A DNA stretch of 64,000 nucleotides from a virus, in the IMG/VR virus record IMGVR_UViG_3300007511_000003, positions 104,901 to 168,900 of that record. One strand, written 5' to 3'. The translations under genes and the position numbers were made by a program. Below are positions 609-28,370 of the stretch, piece after piece (position 1 is the first letter of the stretch; each line of letters starts with the position of its first letter). A model generated the notes under the pieces. It was not told the origin of the DNA. It ran no database searches and saw only the letters and a list, made by a program, of their open reading frames with translations.

Positions 609-979
609 TCCATTTCCCCTTCAGCCTCAGGCTCTTCTCCGTGGGTTTGTTGGAGACGCAGGAACAGGTCGATCCCGAAAGTATCGAGGTCCGACGTCAA
701 CTTAGTGACCTGCCGAGCTGCAACAGATGCCCGTTTCTTGAATGCGATGAGTGCCTGTATCACCTCATCACTATACTCAAGTTCGCGGGCCACATCCAGG
801 ATCGTCCACAATACCTGGTCGGAGATCACCCCTTGTAGAGGTTCCAGTTGGTCTACGATTTTCTTTTCTTGGGGTCCCAGACCACCCAGCTTCTTCCGGT
901 CGAAGCCTGCCAAAACAGGCTCCCTACCGGTAAAGCGAAGGCGTCCGAGAGCCTGTTGGTGTGCAAGCTCACGTTTCAT
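605..979 (-). CDS. Hypothetical protein
   Basis: 124-aa ORF, stop/start overlaps on both sides. Confidence 0.7.
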   Translation of the reverse strand: MKRELAHQQALGRLRFTGREPVLAGFDRKKLGGLGPQEKKIVDQLEPLQGVISDQVLWTILDVARELEYSDEVIQALIAFKKRASVAARQVTKLTSDLDTFGIDLFLRLQQTHGEEPEAEGEME

Positions 980-1899
980 CAGACGACTCCATGGGTACGC
1001 ATCAGTTGTTCGAGGTTGCTGTAGTAGCTGGGATCCTGTTGGTATAGGTCGGCGTAGTACTGCTTGAGGTCGGTCTCCGTCAAGTCCTCTGGGTCTTCGA
1101 CCGTGATGGGCTTGATTTCGTCCGCAACCTCTTGTTTCTTGGCCCAGGCTTTCAACTTCTCCTCGGGGATGTAGGTAGGTCGTGCCTTGGCCGTCACCTG
1201 CATTTTGGGTTCGCTGTCACCCAAGGAAGCCACCTCCACGATCAGGTCAGGGTGCGTGGCCACAGCCTCTTCGTCCCGCACCGCAATCAGCACGTCGCCG
1301 GAGTCCGTGCAGGAGGTTAGGACGTAACCGAACTTGACAATGCCCTCGGCTGGATCGACAAACCCAACGTAGGACCTCTCAGGGCTGGCAATACGTGCGA
1401 TCTCCTGAATCTGTGGAACACCTACCCGACGGGTGCGGGCATGGGCCAGCAACTCAGACAGGTCTTCGTCTTGGTCACGGCACAGGAACTTCTGACCACC
1501 GCTTGTCTTGACGTTCCACAAGCTTTGGTCTTTGGCATCCATCAGGATATTGGATGCCATCACCCGCATGTCCTTGACACGCTCATCGGTGTAGGGTTCA
1601 ACCACACGGTTGGGAACAACGAAACCCGAAAGGATTGGCCGGTTACCTCGGATGTTTACCAACTGGCGGAAAGAGTCAGGTACGATCACGGCCTTACCGT
1701 CAAAGGCGTTGTTGATAGCCGCCTGGATGGCTTTCCGGTCAGAGGTAGGGGACGACAGGCCAACGATAACTTGGCCCACTTGACCCTCCGCCAACACATT
1801 GAATTCATGGACGGTTGCAAGCAGACGGCGGCTGTTACGCTTCTGCAATTTCTTGGCAACCCGCGCGGGGTCAAAGTAACGACTACGATTGGCGTTCAT
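979..1899 (-). CDS. Putative virion head-associated protein
   Basis: 306-aa ORF with SD (AGGAG) and an upstream TGTAAATA motif; function inferred from context only. Confidence 0.6.
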   Translation of the reverse strand: MNANRSRYFDPARVAKKLQKRNSRRLLATVHEFNVLAEGQVGQVIVGLSSPTSDRKAIQAAINNAFDGKAVIVPDSFRQLVNIRGNRPILSGFVVPNRVVEPYTDERVKDMRVMASNILMDAKDQSLWNVKTSGGQKFLCRDQDEDLSELLAHARTRRVGVPQIQEIARIASPERSYVGFVDPAEGIVKFGYVLTSCTDSGDVLIAVRDEEAVATHPDLIVEVASLGDSEPKMQVTAKARPTYIPEEKLKAWAKKQEVADEIKPITVEDPEDLTETDLKQYYADLYQQDPSYYSNLEQLMRTHGVV

Positions 1900-3571: not shown

Positions 3572-5136
3572 AATTCGGCTCCTTCAAAAGCACGTTGCAT
3601 ACTGCTAACCGAACTCATCATACGCAACAAGGGTTGTGGTGTGCGAACACCAATCGACCGGAAATGCTGAATCATGATCGATGGGTCAATGTAGTTTTGT
3701 ATGGCCGTGTCTGGAGTGAGCTTATCCCCACTGTAATGGCCCAACGCCTTTGCTACCTTCATCAGCAACAAACGAAATTCTTGTAGGGCCTCCTTTTGGG
3801 AAGGCGGGACCCCTTGTCTATGGTACCTGCTACCCTTCAATACCTGTTCCGCCAAAAGAGTACCGCGGAGGGTGCGTAACTTGTGGATGGTAACAGGACT
3901 TCCGATCCCTTTGAAATAAGCGTTCACCACGGTAGCAGAGACATGGGCTCCTGATGGTCCGCGAAACACCAAGTCATCTGGTTCCAGACCTTCTGTCAGG
4001 ATCTTGAGCAAAGCCATTACCTTGCGGCTCCATTTGGTGTCCGGAATAATAGCATGCTTATGAGAAATACCGTCCTTGCCCTTATAATGCAGTACCGCAG
4101 TGTTTCCCTTAAGCTGGATATGTTTGGCCCTCAGCGTGGACAAACCATAGGTACTCTGTCCTTTGGTCGAAGAACCAGGGGTCCCTATACGACCCTGTGT
4201 AAGGTAAGCAATTTCCACCAGCAAAGCCGGAATCTGCTTCTTGGAGCCATCCGACATCAGGTCACGGCGCCATTTCTTGAGAAGGGCTTCGATACCTTTG
4301 ACCAGCTTAGCCACCTTGGCAAACTTTTCCTTGGTACGGGCCTTGTGGTACTTTTCGGTATAGTAATACTTGAACTTGGTCCCTTTTGGAGGCTGACCTT
4401 TAAACACCCAAGTGTCATCAGATTTGGGGTCATACTTAGGGTTCATTTCGATCGTACCAGCAGGAACCCCATTAATCTTTTGTCGTGCCTTGGTATACAG
4501 GCCACCGTCTTCCCCAACAAATCCGGTAAACCCCTCTGGTATCTTGACCGCCACCCCTTCTTGGGACGCAGCGGTCCTTACATCAGAGGCATCCAAGATT
4601 GGTTTACCGCTACTCCGAATGTGGTTAAGTAACCACTCTTTTGGTGTGCTCGGTGGGTCCTCATGGACAAAAAGCTTATTGATATGGGGGTCTTTCAATA
4701 CACCTATGTTCTTATGAAACCGCTTGTAGGCGGCAGGGCTAGGCTTGGCAGACAGGACGGAAAAGTCTTTCAGGAGAGCAAAATATTCCTCTGGAATTGA
4801 GTCCTCAGTGGCTCCGTATATATTAGGAAATTTGACCTTCAGGATGGAACCCAAAGCGAGTAGGGCCTTGCTTTCATCCGAGGCGGTGCCACCCTGCTCT
4901 AGCTTATCTACAACCTTGCGTAGAGGCGGGACTTTGATACCGAATTGGGTGAGGAAGTCCTCAGCTTGGGCAAAGAGCTGGTTCAAACGTACCCTTTGCT
5001 GGACCTGTAAGGGCCTTCCAGACTTGACAGAATAGATGATATATGCAAGGGTGCGAAAGAAGGAAAGGACGGCTTCAGGGGTTAAATCCACCTGTAACGC
5101 GATCTCTACATTGGCAAGAACCCGCAACTCTTTCAT
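3568..5136 (-). CDS. DNA topoisomerase IB with N-terminal extension
   Basis: TopIB motifs in order: GRIG, YGLSTL, YKGKDG, HKLRT, ALGH, NYID (catalytic R-K-R-H-Y). Confidence 0.9.
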   Translation of the reverse strand: MKELRVLANVEIALQVDLTPEAVLSFFRTLAYIIYSVKSGRPLQVQQRVRLNQLFAQAEDFLTQFGIKVPPLRKVVDKLEQGGTASDESKALLALGSILKVKFPNIYGATEDSIPEEYFALLKDFSVLSAKPSPAAYKRFHKNIGVLKDPHINKLFVHEDPPSTPKEWLLNHIRSSGKPILDASDVRTAASQEGVAVKIPEGFTGFVGEDGGLYTKARQKINGVPAGTIEMNPKYDPKSDDTWVFKGQPPKGTKFKYYYTEKYHKARTKEKFAKVAKLVKGIEALLKKWRRDLMSDGSKKQIPALLVEIAYLTQGRIGTPGSSTKGQSTYGLSTLRAKHIQLKGNTAVLHYKGKDGISHKHAIIPDTKWSRKVMALLKILTEGLEPDDLVFRGPSGAHVSATVVNAYFKGIGSPVTIHKLRTLRGTLLAEQVLKGSRYHRQGVPPSQKEALQEFRLLLMKVAKALGHYSGDKLTPDTAIQNYIDPSIMIQHFRSIGVRTPQPLLRMMSSVSSMQRAFEGAEL

Positions 5137-10972: not shown

Positions 10973-11467
10973 CTAGTGCCCTATGTGCCTCATATATACC
11001 ACTTTAATTCCCTCTTTCACCACTTGGTCCTGCGTTAACCCTAGACCCTTCGCTGATAGTTTTAACATACGATGGGTTGCAGCGTCAAGCGTTGTCATGT
11101 ATTTCACGGGTCGGTGGTCGGAACCCTTTGATATTTCGTTCGCTTTGGAGATGACAGAAGCCAGATAAACCGCTTGGTCTACCTGGCCGGAACCCTTCCA
11201 TTTGGAACAGAGTTGGGTGATATACTGGGTACCATACTTGACATACTGGGGAATGCGTATCTGGTGGGTGTTATAATGACAAATCCCGCACAGGGTTACA
11301 GTAGGACCGGTTTCCCCTCCGCAATGCCGAGGTACCACATGGTGTTCTTCCAAGCCATCTTTGTCTTGGCAAATCCAACAGTGGTCCAACTTCAATGTAC
11401 GCTTAATTTCCAAACGTTGTGCCCTTGTTAATACTTTAACTTGATGGAGCCGTGCGGGTTTGCCCAT
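10973..11467 (-). CDS. HNH endonuclease with possible C-terminal ribbon-helix-helix
   Basis: CWIC...EEHHVVP...GG...LCGICH; start moved to MGKP because a sigma70 promoter lies at 11486-11514. Confidence 0.8.
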   Translation of the reverse strand: MGKPARLHQVKVLTRAQRLEIKRTLKLDHCWICQDKDGLEEHHVVPRHCGGETGPTVTLCGICHYNTHQIRIPQYVKYGTQYITQLCSKWKGSGQVDQAVYLASVISKANEISKGSDHRPVKYMTTLDAATHRMLKLSAKGLGLTQDQVVKEGIKVVYMRHIGH

Positions 11468-11485
11468 ACCCAACACTACGACACC

Positions 11486-11514
11486 ATTGTAACATATACC
11501 AACAGAAGAGTCAA
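11486..11514 (-). promoter_or_regulatory. sigma70-type promoter
   Basis: TTGACT-17 bp-TACAAT. Confidence 0.75.
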
Positions 11515-11554: not shown

Positions 11555-11663
11555 CTTGCCATAGAAGAGCCCAGATGGAGGCAGGCAACGTTGGGCATGG
11601 ACGTTAGGCGGCACTCGGAGACCGGGGAGATCACACTATACACCTGGGCCCTTCTATGGCAAG
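11555..11663 (-). ncRNA. Long-stem hairpin RNA
   Basis: 23-bp stem (11555-11577 with 11641-11663); mismatches become G-U only on the minus strand; TGTAAATA at 11700-11707 upstream. Confidence 0.5.
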
Positions 11664-11734
11664 GCAGGCCCACCTACTTGGGACCCTGCCCTCATGGTTT
11701 ATTTACAAGAAATTATTATAAACTGAGCCAAAAA

Positions 11735-11822
11735 TGGAGCCAGGAACAGGATTCGAACCTGCGTTGGGTTTTCGCCGTCGGCTTACAAAGCCGCTCCTCT
11801 CGGCCGCTGGAGGGACCCTGGC
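11735..11822 (-). tRNA. tRNA-Thr(UGU), atypical, 15-nt variable arm
   Basis: GCCAGGG/TCCTGGC acceptor, U73, CCA, D stem CCTC/GAGG, anticodon loop TTTGTAA, T arm GCAGG-TTCGAAT-CCTGT. Confidence 0.75.
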
Positions 11823-11845
11823 AAATCAAGATTAGACTAGAGATA

Positions 11846-11919
11846 TGGACCTGCGTTTGGGTAGAACCAACAACCTAAGGCTTAACAGGCCCTCACTTTA
11901 CCAACCAAACTACTGTGGA
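11846..11919 (-). pseudogene. Degenerate or chimeric tRNA-Asn(GUU)
   Basis: 5' TCCACAGTAGTT..., anticodon arm AGGGC-CTGTTAA-GCCTT, ends in CCA, but the T loop is degenerate and acceptor strands do not pair. Confidence 0.6.
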
Positions 11920-11925
11920 TTAAGA

Positions 11926-12034
11926 TGGCACGTAGTAGGAATCGAACCTACGATTCTCGCTTAAACGGTTGATCAGTCCGCTATCGGCGAGCACAGACTC
12001 TGCCTGCGCGTTTACCACTCCGCCATACGTGCCA
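11926..12034 (-). ncRNA. tRNA-like RNA with collapsed anticodon arm and ~40-nt extra arm
   Basis: Acceptor-like TGGCACGTA/TACGTGCCA, D arm GCG-GAGTGGTAAA-CGC, T arm GTAGG-TTCGATT-CCTAC; middle CAGGC-AGA-GTCTG plus CTCGC...GCGAG arm. Confidence 0.7.
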
Positions 12035-12042
12035 CAAAGAAA

Positions 12043-12297
12043 ATATGGTGTGCTATTACGCCAAAGAGGAGTTCACCCTTACCATCTCTGGGGTGGCTTA
12101 CTACTTCACCAAGTGGCGCCCGTCGCCTATCCCTCATAGCAGGTGGTCCTGCAGAGCTCTTTATTTGGATGCCGCCACCCAAACGTTAGCCTAGAGGTTT
12201 CCCTGGTTCATGCCCTTGCAATCCAGGTACGTACTACAACTAACGGCCTTTGCCTCACTCTTTAAAGGATGGCTGCTTCTAAGCCAACCTCCCATAC
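12043..12297 (-). ncRNA. 23S rRNA GTPase-associated-centre (H43/H44) mimic RNA with ~195-nt structured insert
   Basis: GGAGGTTGGCTTAGAAGCAGCCATCCTTTAAAGAGTG...GCGTAATAGCACAC matches 23S nt ~1055-1104 (E. coli numbering, recalled from memory); closed by GTATGG/CCATAT. Confidence 0.85.
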
Positions 12298-12309
12298 CTT
12301 ATAGTATAT

Positions 12310-12681
12310 TCAATACCACGTTCGATGTTGTTCAAATACCCATTCACGACCATCGTCAGCTTCACCGATACTCCACTTAATGTCCTCCGGAATCTCTATG
12401 ACCTTCAGGTCAGGGGCCAAATCCTGGTGTTGGTTGAATGCTTCCAAGAGAGCAGGGTCATCACGCGGTATATCAAACACTGGGCAAAATCGTTCACCAT
12501 CCTTGGTGTAGTTAAAGGATGCATGTGGTTCGTCTTCATGGGCCTGGTCTTTATAAGATTGGACATACACTCCGTCCAGTTCCCACTGGAGATCAACACC
12601 AGTAGCCTGTGCCCAGGCCATCACAATTTTGTGTGGAAGGGAAAACCCACCGATTTCTTTGTTAATGAGTATATGCCTCAC
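12310..12681 (-). CDS. Hypothetical phage protein
   Basis: RDDPAL...LKVIEIP...W.I.E.D.GREWV.EQHRTW pattern common in small phage proteins. Confidence 0.75.
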   Translation of the reverse strand: MRHILINKEIGGFSLPHKIVMAWAQATGVDLQWELDGVYVQSYKDQAHEDEPHASFNYTKDGERFCPVFDIPRDDPALLEAFNQHQDLAPDLKVIEIPEDIKWSIGEADDGREWVFEQHRTWY

Positions 12682-12708
12682 GAGTAACTACCTTAAGTAC
12701 TGGTTGAT

Positions 12709-12785
12709 TGGCTGGCCCTCCTGGATTCGAACCAGGGATACACAGAATCAAAATCTGTTGCCTTACCAAACTTGGCTAAGGGCCA
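12709..12785 (-). tRNA. tRNA-Gln(UUG)
   Basis: TGGCCCT/AGGGCCA acceptor, G73, CCA, anticodon loop TTTTGAT, canonical T arm. Confidence 0.95.
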
Positions 12786-12790
12786 ATCGA

Positions 12791-12957
12791 ATACCACAGG
12801 CTGGGCGTTACTCCAGCTACACGGTTTCTCACCAGGAATATAACCGGGATCACCTGGTAATTCGCACGAGCTACACTGGCATCAGGCCCTTATCCCTTGC
12901 CATTTGGGCAATATCCCTCCTGTCACCAGGAGGCCCCCGTTTACCGCGGGGCGGTAC
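12791..12957 (-). ncRNA. Multi-hairpin structured RNA of unknown class
   Basis: Closing stem GTACCGC/GTGGTAT enclosing hairpins CCCCG/CGGGG, CCTCCTG/CAGGAGG, TTGCC/GGCAA, ACCAGG/CCTGGT and GCTGG/CCAGC; no sense ORF. Confidence 0.6.
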
Positions 12958-12964
12958 AACGCAA

Positions 12965-13213
12965 TTATGCCACTCCTCTATATATTATTATTATATAGAG
13001 ATGTGTCCTGTTTCCCCGCCCGATCAGGTGACGGGCCTGACGCTCGGTGCCGACACGCCAGTCTTGTTCTTGAGCGAGTTTGGCAAAGGCAAGGGCCAAT
13101 AGGTTGCGATCATAATAGGCGGCCTCCAATGCTTGCCCCTCCGCTCGCAACTTAACCACTTCTGCCTTTCGCAGTTCCTCAGCATGAGCGCCTGATAATT
13201 GGACATTACACAT
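12965..13213 (-). CDS. Hypothetical protein
   Basis: 82-aa ORF with SD, in operon orientation. Confidence 0.55.
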   Translation of the reverse strand: MCNVQLSGAHAEELRKAEVVKLRAEGQALEAAYYDRNLLALAFAKLAQEQDWRVGTERQARHLIGRGNRTHLYIIIIYRGVA

Positions 13214-13606: not shown

Positions 13607-13682
13607 TGGTGGAGACGGACGGAATCGAACCGCCGACATCCTGCTTGCAAAGCAGGCGCTCTCCCAACTGAGCTACGCCCCC
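13607..13682 (-). tRNA. tRNA-Ala(UGC)
   Basis: GGGGGCG/CGTCTCC with G3-U70, A73, CCA, anticodon loop TTTGCAA. Confidence 0.97.
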
Positions 13683-14312: not shown

Positions 14313-14400
14313 TGGTAGGGCTGGAGGGAGTTGAACCCACGGTAGGTCGCCCTACGTCGGTTTTCAAGACCGGTACCTTTAACCACTCGGCCACCCTTCC
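14313..14400 (-). tRNA. tRNA-Ser(UGA) body with non-matching 3' acceptor strand (chimeric or pseudo)
   Basis: GGAAGGG...CTTGAAA loop and long V arm GTAGG-GCGA-CCTAC, but the 3' strand is CAGCCCT-A-CCA. Confidence 0.7.
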
Positions 14401-18679: not shown

Positions 18680-19381
18680 TTAACAAACATCAAAGTGGTT
18701 GAGGCGTTCCAGTAGGGGATCGGATAACCCAGCATCCGCAAAACCCTTGGCACGCAATAAGCAACTACGGCACTTGGTACATGGGGATTTACCCCCTTCA
18801 TAGCAAGTGGTGGTGAAGGCCAATAATTCCATACCACGCGGCAACGACTGAGCAAACTCTACCACCCCTTGCTTACCCCACTGCATTAGAGGAGTAAGTA
18901 CCTGGAAGTGGTAGTCCATTCCTTTCGTCAGAGCCTCGGCCATGGCATCCGCAAAGTCACGGCGAGCGTCTGGGTACCCGCCCAACCCCTGTTCAGATAT
19001 GCCAAACACCAGGTTAGGGCAATCCAAAGCATAGGCCCTGTTCGCGAGCAAAATGGAAAACAGGATGTTACGCCCTGGAACGAACGTAAGGTCCTTGCCA
19101 CCATCTGGGATCTCCGACGCGTCTTCGTATCGTTTGACTTCGTTCGCGCTGTTTACCAGTGGACTGGTGGACCGCAAGAGCTCATTCGGGACACTGATAA
19201 TATCCTGACGTATGCCAAGTTGGCGGCATATGGTCTGGGAAGCAAGCCGTTCCGCTTCCCATGTTTTGTGTCCATAGTTGAAGGTGATAGCGCGAACCTC
19301 GTCAAACTCTTGCTGGGCCCAAATCAGGGCAAGAGTCGAGTCGAGGCCTCCGGATAAACTGACAAGGGCTTTCGTTGTCAT
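18680..19381 (-). CDS. queC: 7-cyano-7-deazaguanine (preQ0) synthase
   Basis: SGGLDST, FVPGRN, YPD, TCY...CTKCRSC motifs. Confidence 0.93.
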   Translation of the reverse strand: MTTKALVSLSGGLDSTLALIWAQQEFDEVRAITFNYGHKTWEAERLASQTICRQLGIRQDIISVPNELLRSTSPLVNSANEVKRYEDASEIPDGGKDLTFVPGRNILFSILLANRAYALDCPNLVFGISEQGLGGYPDARRDFADAMAEALTKGMDYHFQVLTPLMQWGKQGVVEFAQSLPRGMELLAFTTTCYEGGKSPCTKCRSCLLRAKGFADAGLSDPLLERLNHFDVC

Positions 19382-20079: not shown

Positions 20080-20670
20080 TTACTTGGAGGCTTTGAAAGC
20101 GAGGCCGTGAGAGGCCAAAGCATCCTTGACAGCCCTAACCGACCGGCGACCCAAGCCTGAGATATCGCTCATCTCGGCATGGGTTTTGGCCTTGAGCTGG
20201 GAAACGGTCTTGATTCCAGACTTGGCCAGTGTCTCAACCACACGATCAGTCACACCCAGGTCTGCCACGTTCCGCGGGGCCTTGTCACCGGAAGCCTTGG
20301 TTTGGGTTCCCCGACGGGACTTGCGGGCGGGCTTCTCTTCGGTAGCACCTTCGGTGGCCTTGGCTTTCCGGCTCCGACGGCTGGACTTTTTGGTCGCCTC
20401 TTCCTTGGGTTGGCTGTCATCAGCGGTCTCCGCCTTGGCTTTCCGACGGGACTTGCGGGCGGGCTTCTCTTCGGTAGCACCTTCGGTGGCCTTGGCAGTG
20501 GGCTTGCGGACGCGAGTCTTTTTGCCTTCGGTCTGACGCTTTTTGAGCTCCTGCTCCCACTGCTCCGCGAAATCGAAAGCCTTGGCAGCAACGTTCTCAG
20601 TTTCACCAGACTCGATCAAAGCGGCCATGGCGAGGATGGAAACCTGGGTTTTGTTAGACTGACTGTTCAT
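20080..20670 (-). CDS. Histone-like linker plus RNA polymerase alpha-CTD-like domain
   Basis: K/A/R-rich repeats then DLGVTDRVVETLAKSGIKTVSQL...ISGLGRRSVRAVKDAL (alpha-CTD/HhH pattern). Confidence 0.75.
   Translation of the reverse strand: MNSQSNKTQVSILAMAALIESGETENVAAKAFDFAEQWEQELKKRQTEGKKTRVRKPTAKATEGATEEKPARKSRRKAKAETADDSQPKEEATKKSSRRSRKAKATEGATEEKPARKSRRGTQTKASGDKAPRNVADLGVTDRVVETLAKSGIKTVSQLKAKTHAEMSDISGLGRRSVRAVKDALASHGLAFKASK
20311..20496. repeat. 54-bp direct repeat (20311-20364 and 20443-20496); its 31-bp core also occurs at 19844-19874
   Basis: ttgcgggcgggcttctcttcggtagcacctt occurs three times. Confidence 0.9.
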
Positions 20671-28279: not shown

Positions 28280-28370
28280 GACCGTCCCCACTCATCCTAG
28301 ACATGTAAAATTGGATACCACCTCTTCCTCCATTTGGTAGGTTCAATGTCTAGGATGAGTGGGGACGGTC
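28280..28370. repeat. Perfect 25-bp inverted repeat with 41-nt spacer
   Basis: gaccgtccccactcatcctagacat / atgtctaggatgagtggggacggtc. Confidence 0.95.

Follow-up and report, generated by a model that had tools for sequence, protein, structure and literature searches.

Our results favor a model, to which we assign a probability of roughly two in three, in which the RNA island at positions 11555 to 12957 is a lineage-specific accretion of independent, separately moving small RNA genes that are cut apart by tRNA processing. Positions are those of the window, the whole stretch of 64,000 nucleotides that was analyzed. The accretion would have piled up in a variable interval between gyrA and an HNH-like gene of a phiRSL1/Lu11-like jumbo phage, an interval comparable in kind to the tRNA regions that phages T4 and T5 carry, and its oldest resident is a mimic of the uL11 site of 23S rRNA, which the closest relative (L098) has in common with the source virus. 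Several lines of evidence point to this model: the gene order in L098, the mutual absence of two RNA families, the freely varying neighbors of the mimic, the separate promoter motifs, the signs of decay, and the T4 and T5 precedent.

Setting and layout of the island

The source of the window is an IMG/VR virus record of 168.9 kb, with a completeness of about 65%. Protein comparison places the virus with phiRSL1/Lu11-like jumbo myoviruses, and its distant cultured kin, at 25 to 33% identity, are Vibrio phage GR7B, Xanthomonas phage PhiXhv-12, BcepSauron, Motura, and Pseudomonas phage Voja-6. Relatives of the virus were drawn from the protein database; protein-pattern scans gave none. The island sequence is identical in two independent assemblies and is therefore no assembly artifact. 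The first-pass annotation had described seven RNA elements and one small CDS packed closely on a single strand, and all of them are present on the minus strand. In order of transcription, the features of the island and its surroundings are as follows.

14316..14397, minus strand: tRNA-Ser(UGA), probably broken (Rfam 33.7 bits with an acceptor gap)
13607..13682, minus strand: tRNA-Ala(UGC), normal (67.9 bits), outside the limits of the island and in the same variable interval
12964..12972, minus strand: extended -10 promoter candidate (TG-n-CATAAT; sequence and motif scan)
12791..12957, minus strand: 167-nt RNA, a divergent member of a large phage RNA family (pattern search, covariation)
12709..12785, minus strand: tRNA-Gln(UUG), normal, with encoded CCA (ARAGORN; Rfam 63.3 bits)
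12310..12681, minus strand: small CDS of up to 123 aa, phrog_16527 (E 1e-9)
12042..12298, minus strand: mimic of the 23S rRNA GTPase-associated center (top of H42, H43, H44; comparison with E. coli 23S rRNA)
11926..12034, minus strand: tRNA-shaped RNA (Rfam 43.7 bits; fold z = -2.6)
11843..11920 (approximate), minus strand: broken tRNA-Asn(GUU) (Rfam 24.7 bits, model positions 8-63 only)
11735..11822, minus strand: tRNA-Thr(UGU) with a long variable arm and encoded CCA (ARAGORN; Rfam 37.2 bits)
11700..11707, minus strand: TGTAAATA, candidate phage late promoter for the hairpin (motif scan)
11555..11663, minus strand: long hairpin with a 23-bp stem (z = -4.9, 0/200 shuffles)
11486..11514, minus strand: sigma-70-type promoter candidate for the HNH-like gene (10 of 12, TG extension)
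10973..11413, minus strand: HNH-like gene bounding the island (weak HNH hits)

The individual descriptions also held. The long hairpin, the normal tRNA (tRNA-Gln), the atypical tRNA (the long-armed tRNA-Thr), the defective tRNA (tRNA-Asn, whose acceptor stem is unmatched), and the nondecoding tRNA-like RNA (11926 to 12034, with a 3-nt loop in place of the anticodon loop) were all recovered; the rRNA-domain mimic is a real conserved RNA; and the other structured RNA, at 12791 to 12957, has a fold z of only -2.1 but belongs to a conserved family. Most elements are indeed noncanonical, as had been noted, although phage T5, with seven annotated stable RNAs of unknown function among its tRNAs, shows that this is nothing out of the ordinary. 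The tRNA region runs past the island, with tRNA-Ala and the broken tRNA-Ser lying upstream, and these included, the whole genome record has six tRNA-like genes; no tRNA-Lys or tRNA-Tyr was found in the 169 kb of the source record. Among the island elements and homologous loci, only tRNA rose above chance with the Rfam 15 covariance models. GOLLD, ROOL, tmRNA, YrlA/Y RNA, 6S, SRP, and RNase P were considered for the island elements and rejected, with no Rfam or ARAGORN match. No rRNA family was detected in the window, and the island elements had no other significant 23S or 5S similarity. Comparison of the 167-nt RNA, the insert of the mimic, and the hairpin with E. coli rRNA gave no second rRNA mimic; the best of 12 tests was matched by 2 of 100 shuffles.

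tRNA-Gln resembles the tRNA-Gln of T4-like phages. tRNA-Thr has a cloverleaf, a regular 7-nt anticodon loop, and a Thr-type acceptor (G1-C72, C2-G71, and U73, which we take to match the Thr identity rules), and a T run follows the gene. Its nearest matches are the long-armed tRNA-Lys of Xanthomonas phages X1 and XacN1 and the long-armed tRNA-Thr of T5-like phages; with long-armed tRNAs of cultured phages as its best matches, it represents a type that recurs in phages, and it probably decodes, as judged from its sequence. Codon use made no special case for Thr ACA (21%). tRNA-Asn lies below the Rfam tRNA cutoff of 29 bits, its D and anticodon arms are recognizable, and its acceptor stem is destroyed. 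Its 3' end has 9 nt in common with the neighboring tRNA-Thr, a repeat reached in 6 of 3,000 shuffles, and from this repeat the damage looks like a local copying accident; the gene seems damaged rather than designed. tRNA-Ser, which ARAGORN missed, lacks 3 nt of the 5' acceptor strand.

Like tRNA-Asn, which fails at the acceptor, the RNA at 11926 to 12034 does not have the build of a working tRNA, failing at the anticodon loop. It has a Leu-type D arm, an intact T arm, an 8- to 9-bp acceptor, an extra arm of about 40 nt, and a shrunken anticodon hairpin, with all stems intact. RNAs built broadly in this way are common in phage tRNA regions, and one look-alike with a shrunken anticodon hairpin was found (L022). 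An intron-containing tRNA-Ala, as proposed by ARAGORN for this position, is not credible. The long hairpin consists of a 23-bp stem with two G-U pairs (arms 11641 to 11663 and 11555 to 11577) and a 63-nt branched loop. No close homologue of the tRNA-shaped RNA and no homologue of the hairpin was found, and blastn against cultured phages returned nothing specific for either, negatives that are weak because the same kind of single-sequence model likewise missed the large family of the 167-nt RNA. A HEARO-like or homing pair of hairpin and HNH-like gene was rejected, because in the relative L098 the gene is present with no such hairpin next to it. A second long inverted repeat, of 25 perfect base pairs, lies at window positions 28280 to 28370, near a sign change of the GC skew, and is unrelated in sequence to the island hairpin. 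The small CDS matched no Pfam family.

The uL11-site mimic and the family of the 167-nt RNA

The GTPase-associated center of bacterial 23S rRNA (H42 to H44, E. coli positions 1051 to 1108) is the site of uL11 and thiostrepton binding, and the mimic has its H43/H44 sequence and secondary structure. Window positions 12297 to 12257 correspond to E. coli 23S positions 1050 to 1090 and positions 12061 to 12043 to 1091 to 1109, and the ends of the mimic are identical to E. coli 23S rRNA at 45 of the 50 positions between 1055 and 1104. The mimic keeps the H43 and H44 loops, U1060-A1088, and the partners of the G1071/C1072 triple, the last two being tertiary contacts of the ribosomal center. Unlike the 23S center, it is free-standing, outside any full rRNA gene or operon; it is split between E. 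coli positions 1090 and 1091 by a 195-nt insert (12256 to 12062) with its own closing helix and UUUG linker; and it has a U1090-A1101 pair.

We collected 102 distinct copies of the mimic, with inserts of 29 to 304 nt. The split design recurs in unrelated cultured phages, namely Pseudomonas phages Astolliot, UNO-G1W1, pf16, and Milchi, Serratia phage BF, Cronobacter phage GAP32, Xanthomonas phage XacN1, and Aeromonas phage 4_4572. It also occurs in IMG/VR, and genome bins of prokaryotes contributed another 38 contigs, where the mimic often sits in a tRNA array. Covariation was counted in 55 in-register copies, where positions 1062-1075 and 1091-1104 are partly fixed by the search patterns and weigh less as evidence. 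Among the pairs that the patterns do not fix, 1057-1081 and 1058-1080 are formed in all 55 copies with several pair types, 1082-1086 in 53 of 55, the closing helix in 48 to 55 of 55, and the first three pairs of the phage-specific inserted helix, which comes with a conserved linker, in 53 to 55 of 55. The covariation at pairs that were not fixed by the search patterns argues that the mimic is real and under structural selection, and the mimic thus has the fold of the rRNA domain to which uL11 binds. A kink-turn-42-like context was present in none of the 102 copies by a crude test, and the uL10 site is therefore probably missing. We found no description of the mimic in the literature searched.

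The neighborhood of the mimic varies. Directly downstream lies a canonical tRNA in 22 of 97 cases (12 different types), a T-arm-bearing odd RNA in 11, and neither in 64, and in BF, GAP32, and XacN1 the mimic is located among protein genes. Several variants were observed in addition. Of 64 distinct mimics, 28 have a conserved sub-module, a tetraloop hairpin with an internal loop, just short of where the insert ends (in the window at 12066 to 12095, minus strand). An extra insertion near 1078-1080, a second tolerated site, occurs in mimics L043, L052, L053, L064, L070, L082, and L172, and the copy in L082 spans about 700 nt. In Astolliot (L001), a further 5' half, which has diverged, lies at around 2160 to 2210, some 330 nt upstream of the intact mimic. 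Mimics sit within large tRNA arrays in contigs binned to bacteria and one archaeon (L124, L131, L139, L140, L158, L182, and L183). In a related phage group (L033, L039, L042, L050, L085, and L168), the mimic is followed directly by a large tRNA-shaped RNA that is AT rich and has two long arms in its middle, and in L061, L079, and L089 a short odd tRNA takes this place.

We consider it likely that the mimic binds uL11, and most likely it serves as a free decoy or a protein-stabilized platform for the uL11 ribosomal site. RelA activation needs uL11 (PMC4974054), so damping of the stringent response by the mimic would be a reasonable consequence; that uL11 drained by the mimic damps RelA is one possible outcome, which we regard as rather unlikely. 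It is doubtful that the mimic could draw uL11 off existing ribosomes within one lytic cycle. A decoy role in the island would plausibly fit only this element.

The 167-nt RNA belongs to a second family. A 20-nt pattern from its last hairpin matched eight metagenome contigs, in which the closing helix and the 5' hairpin are common to all but one truncated copy, and a relaxed 3'-hairpin pattern matched more than 118 viral contigs. By their 3' motifs we distinguished 125 copies, 78 of them with the canonical 5' hairpin. Members of the family are closed by a helix on which a conserved 3' hairpin stacks, and they have a loop hairpin on the 5' side and a middle part that varies. In the 78 canonical copies, closing pairs 3 to 8 are paired in 442 of 468 cases, compared with a shuffled mean of 218. 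The 5'-loop pyrimidine covaries with the 3'-loop purine (68 C-G, 9 U-A, and 1 U-G), which points to contact between the two loops, like that in the tRNA elbow, though lineage and base composition could explain part of the pattern. We infer a tRNA-elbow-like scaffold that carries a variable payload. In the window copy, the 3' hairpin (12800 to 12817) is fully conserved and the 5' hairpin is atypical, for which reason we class this copy as a divergent member; it also has a 2-nt offset. Family members are mostly 100 to 250 nt long and mostly located in phage contigs of 15 to 100 kb, only 8 of 89 have a tRNA nearby, and their motifs occur in cultured Pseudomonas phages PotUPM1, Persinger, and Orimi01. 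Neither the window copy nor the homologous loci matched Rfam 15, blastn of the 167-nt RNA against cultured phages returned nothing specific, and its single-sequence model found no homologue, although the short pattern then revealed a large family. The loci are L189 to L314 (for example, L201 at about 4605 to 4755, plus strand, and L196 at 884 to 1020, plus strand). In L265 a tRNA match of 41 bits lies inside the middle of a family member (1630 to 1697, minus strand), and within 1.3 kb of L307 the 3' hairpin occurs three times.

A further reading, which we hold to be less likely than not, is that phages widely encode a free uL11-center RNA and a separate family of tRNA-elbow-like carriers, that this genome collected both, and that the free RNA captures uL11 or docking factors and so blunts RelA or ribosome-targeting defense. 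If true, the island is a natural sampler of RNA-only translation mimicry, though one that is not inherited as a unit. The mimic copies a defined ribosomal site and is present in cultured phages such as Pseudomonas phage pf16 and Serratia phage BF, and an RNA-only phage mimic of a ribosomal functional center would, if true, represent a new principle of counter-defense or host control.

Synteny, co-occurrence, and transcription

L098, the closest relative, has 58 to 62% protein identity to the source virus and the same gene order around the site, keeping gyrA, a 319-aa gene, the HNH-like gene, and two downstream genes. The HNH-like gene is 58% identical to its syntenic counterpart and, being common to both phages, is not island cargo. 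The 437-nt gap before the HNH-like gene of L098 contains the mimic together with a sigma-70-like promoter and a short leader hairpin; no tRNA, tRNA-shaped RNA, long hairpin, or 167-nt RNA was found at this syntenic site. The more distant relative L101 and five cultured kin had no RNA in the corresponding interval, and the five cultured kin had no mimic anywhere. The claim that the island is one co-conserved set was thus not borne out, as L098 keeps the mimic alone at the site and the other kin keep nothing. Between gyrB and gyrA, a QueC-family gene and a gene for an RNA polymerase alpha C-terminal domain lie at about 18680 to 19381 and 20080 to 20670 of the window, and both occur between gyrB and gyrA in L098 too; gyrA of L098 (4772 to 6710) is in two open reading frames (ORFs), the first with an intein-type (Hint_2) hit.

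Nor are the element families kept together across unrelated phages: the mimic and the 167-nt family share none of the 96 records tested. The 167-nt family was absent from 50 records, 49 of them mimic bearing, and the mimic was absent from 46 records and 126 loci of the 167-nt family, a mutual absence that partly reflects phage size (contigs of 15 to 100 kb versus mostly larger phages). The hairpin and the small CDS were each found in 0 of 50 records, 49 of which had been chosen for the mimic. These co-occurrence negatives are those of single-sequence models and exact patterns, which miss diverged homologues, and of one close relative. Since the pieces occur independently in other phages, the island is a patchwork of RNA cargo rather than one inherited decoy unit. 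Against accretion, the remaining elements might sit elsewhere in L098, the single close relative, and about one-third of the mimics are directly followed by a tRNA-shaped unit, which is a real if loose association.

The extended -10 candidate lies 7 nt ahead of the 5' end of the 167-nt RNA, with AT-rich sequence upstream. tRNA-shaped 5' ends lie right behind both family RNAs, with spacers of 5 and 8 nt, the latter between the mimic and the tRNA-shaped RNA. One upstream promoter motif and these short spacers are what would be expected if the stretch between the 167-nt RNA and tRNA-Thr, both included, were transcribed together and processed as tRNAs are, and the spacers would suit release of both family RNAs by RNase P. 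The motif TGTAAATA has 25 copies in the genome versus 4 expected, and about half of them lie 30 to 60 nt ahead of a co-oriented ORF; because it is enriched and usually just ahead of ORFs, the hairpin probably has its own late promoter, and the promoter motifs suggest that the island comprises at least two transcription units. TGTAAATA differs by one base from the T4 late promoter and is also found in L098 and Vibrio phage GR7B. In the accretion model, the promoter ahead of 12957 would probably yield one transcript from the 167-nt RNA through tRNA-Thr, which host RNase P and 3' nucleases would cut at the tRNA-shaped units, with the tRNA-shaped RNA behind the mimic setting the mimic's 3' end, and the hairpin would be transcribed from its own late promoter. 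Once cut, the products would act separately. tRNA-Gln and the long-armed tRNA-Thr would function as tRNAs, supplementing or replacing those of the host, while the visibly damaged tRNA-Asn and tRNA-Ser would be decaying, presumably without effect.

Competing explanations and comparison with known systems

The first-pass annotation had proposed a set of decoys against translation-targeting defense or the stringent response. Parts of this proposal stand, since the rRNA mimic is real and two tRNA-shaped elements cannot decode, but co-conservation fails. One co-transcribed and co-selected decoy set that jointly absorbs anticodon nucleases, toxins, and the stringent response now seems improbable to us. 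The dense same-strand packing with 5- to 8-nt spacers at two junctions, the rRNA mimic beside two tRNA-shaped nondecoding RNAs, the anticodon arms kept in both broken tRNAs, and the need of RelA for uL11 (PMC4974054) would all suit such a set, which is nevertheless largely refuted by synteny, with no co-conservation in kin or across families. The separate promoter motif of the hairpin and the accident-like damage of tRNA-Asn also speak against it, and the published anti-defense phage tRNAs overcome PrrC, PARIS, and retron Eco7 as substitutes for the cut tRNA rather than as decoys (PMC11464382, PMC11555353). For tRNA-Gln and tRNA-Thr, replacement is a better fit than a decoy role is for the broken tRNAs.

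A functional hotspot without linkage, where elements arrive separately and each is kept for shielding translation from host defense, much as anti-defense genes cluster in variable regions, is unlikely in our view. T5-like tRNA-rich regions do hold several unrelated anti-defense functions (PMC11555353), and unrelated phages repeatedly carry long-armed tRNAs and tRNA-shaped RNAs; however, shared transcription could by itself account for elements lying together, as has been proposed for GOLLD and ROOL (PMC5737381), and the 167-nt family shows little tendency to lie near tRNAs. We consider it very improbable that the island is mostly debris, a decaying tRNA array with a captured rRNA fragment whose function is limited to two or three intact tRNAs. 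Such a reading would account for two broken genes among the six tRNA-like genes of the genome, for a hairpin and a tRNA-shaped RNA without close homologues, and for a 167-nt RNA without the canonical 5' hairpin, but not for the compensatory changes, inserted helix, and conserved linker of the mimic, the strong covariation of the 167-nt family, or the intact stems of the tRNA-shaped RNA.

As a unit, the island that we attribute to accretion is of a familiar kind, a phage tRNA region with extra stable RNAs such as T4 species 1 and 2 RNA. The value of the island lies in its two conserved RNA families unmatched in Rfam 15. The T4 tRNA cluster (species 1 and 2 RNAs, rnaC, and rnaD) and the T5 tRNA region (RNA I, III, IV, 1, 2, 2H, and 3) show the same mix of tRNAs, small ORFs, and stable RNAs of unknown function, and they and the island have several promoters, HNH genes, and a variable region in common; T5 RNA1 and RNA2 are tRNA shaped with oversized middles, like the RNA at 11926 to 12034. 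In contrast to these regions, the variable interval of the island has only three tRNAs that look functional. The homology of the island RNAs to those of T4 and T5 amounts to the T arm or to chance-level alignments, and the T4 and T5 regions have neither an rRNA mimic nor the 167-nt family motif. T5 tRNA-Lys, which acts against PARIS, and SP15 tRNA-Tyr and tRNA-Lys, which act against retron Eco7 and PrrC, likewise come from tRNA-rich variable regions, whereas the source record holds neither isoacceptor; tRNA-Lys is the target of PrrC and AriB (PMC11464382, PMC11555353), and the island has none. By analogy, its tRNA-Gln and tRNA-Thr could act like the T5 and SP15 replacement tRNAs. GOLLD and ROOL are large structured phage RNAs of unknown function that are often found near tRNA islands (PMC12286853, PMC5737381); compared with them, the island elements, which have no Rfam match, are much smaller and have other conserved cores.
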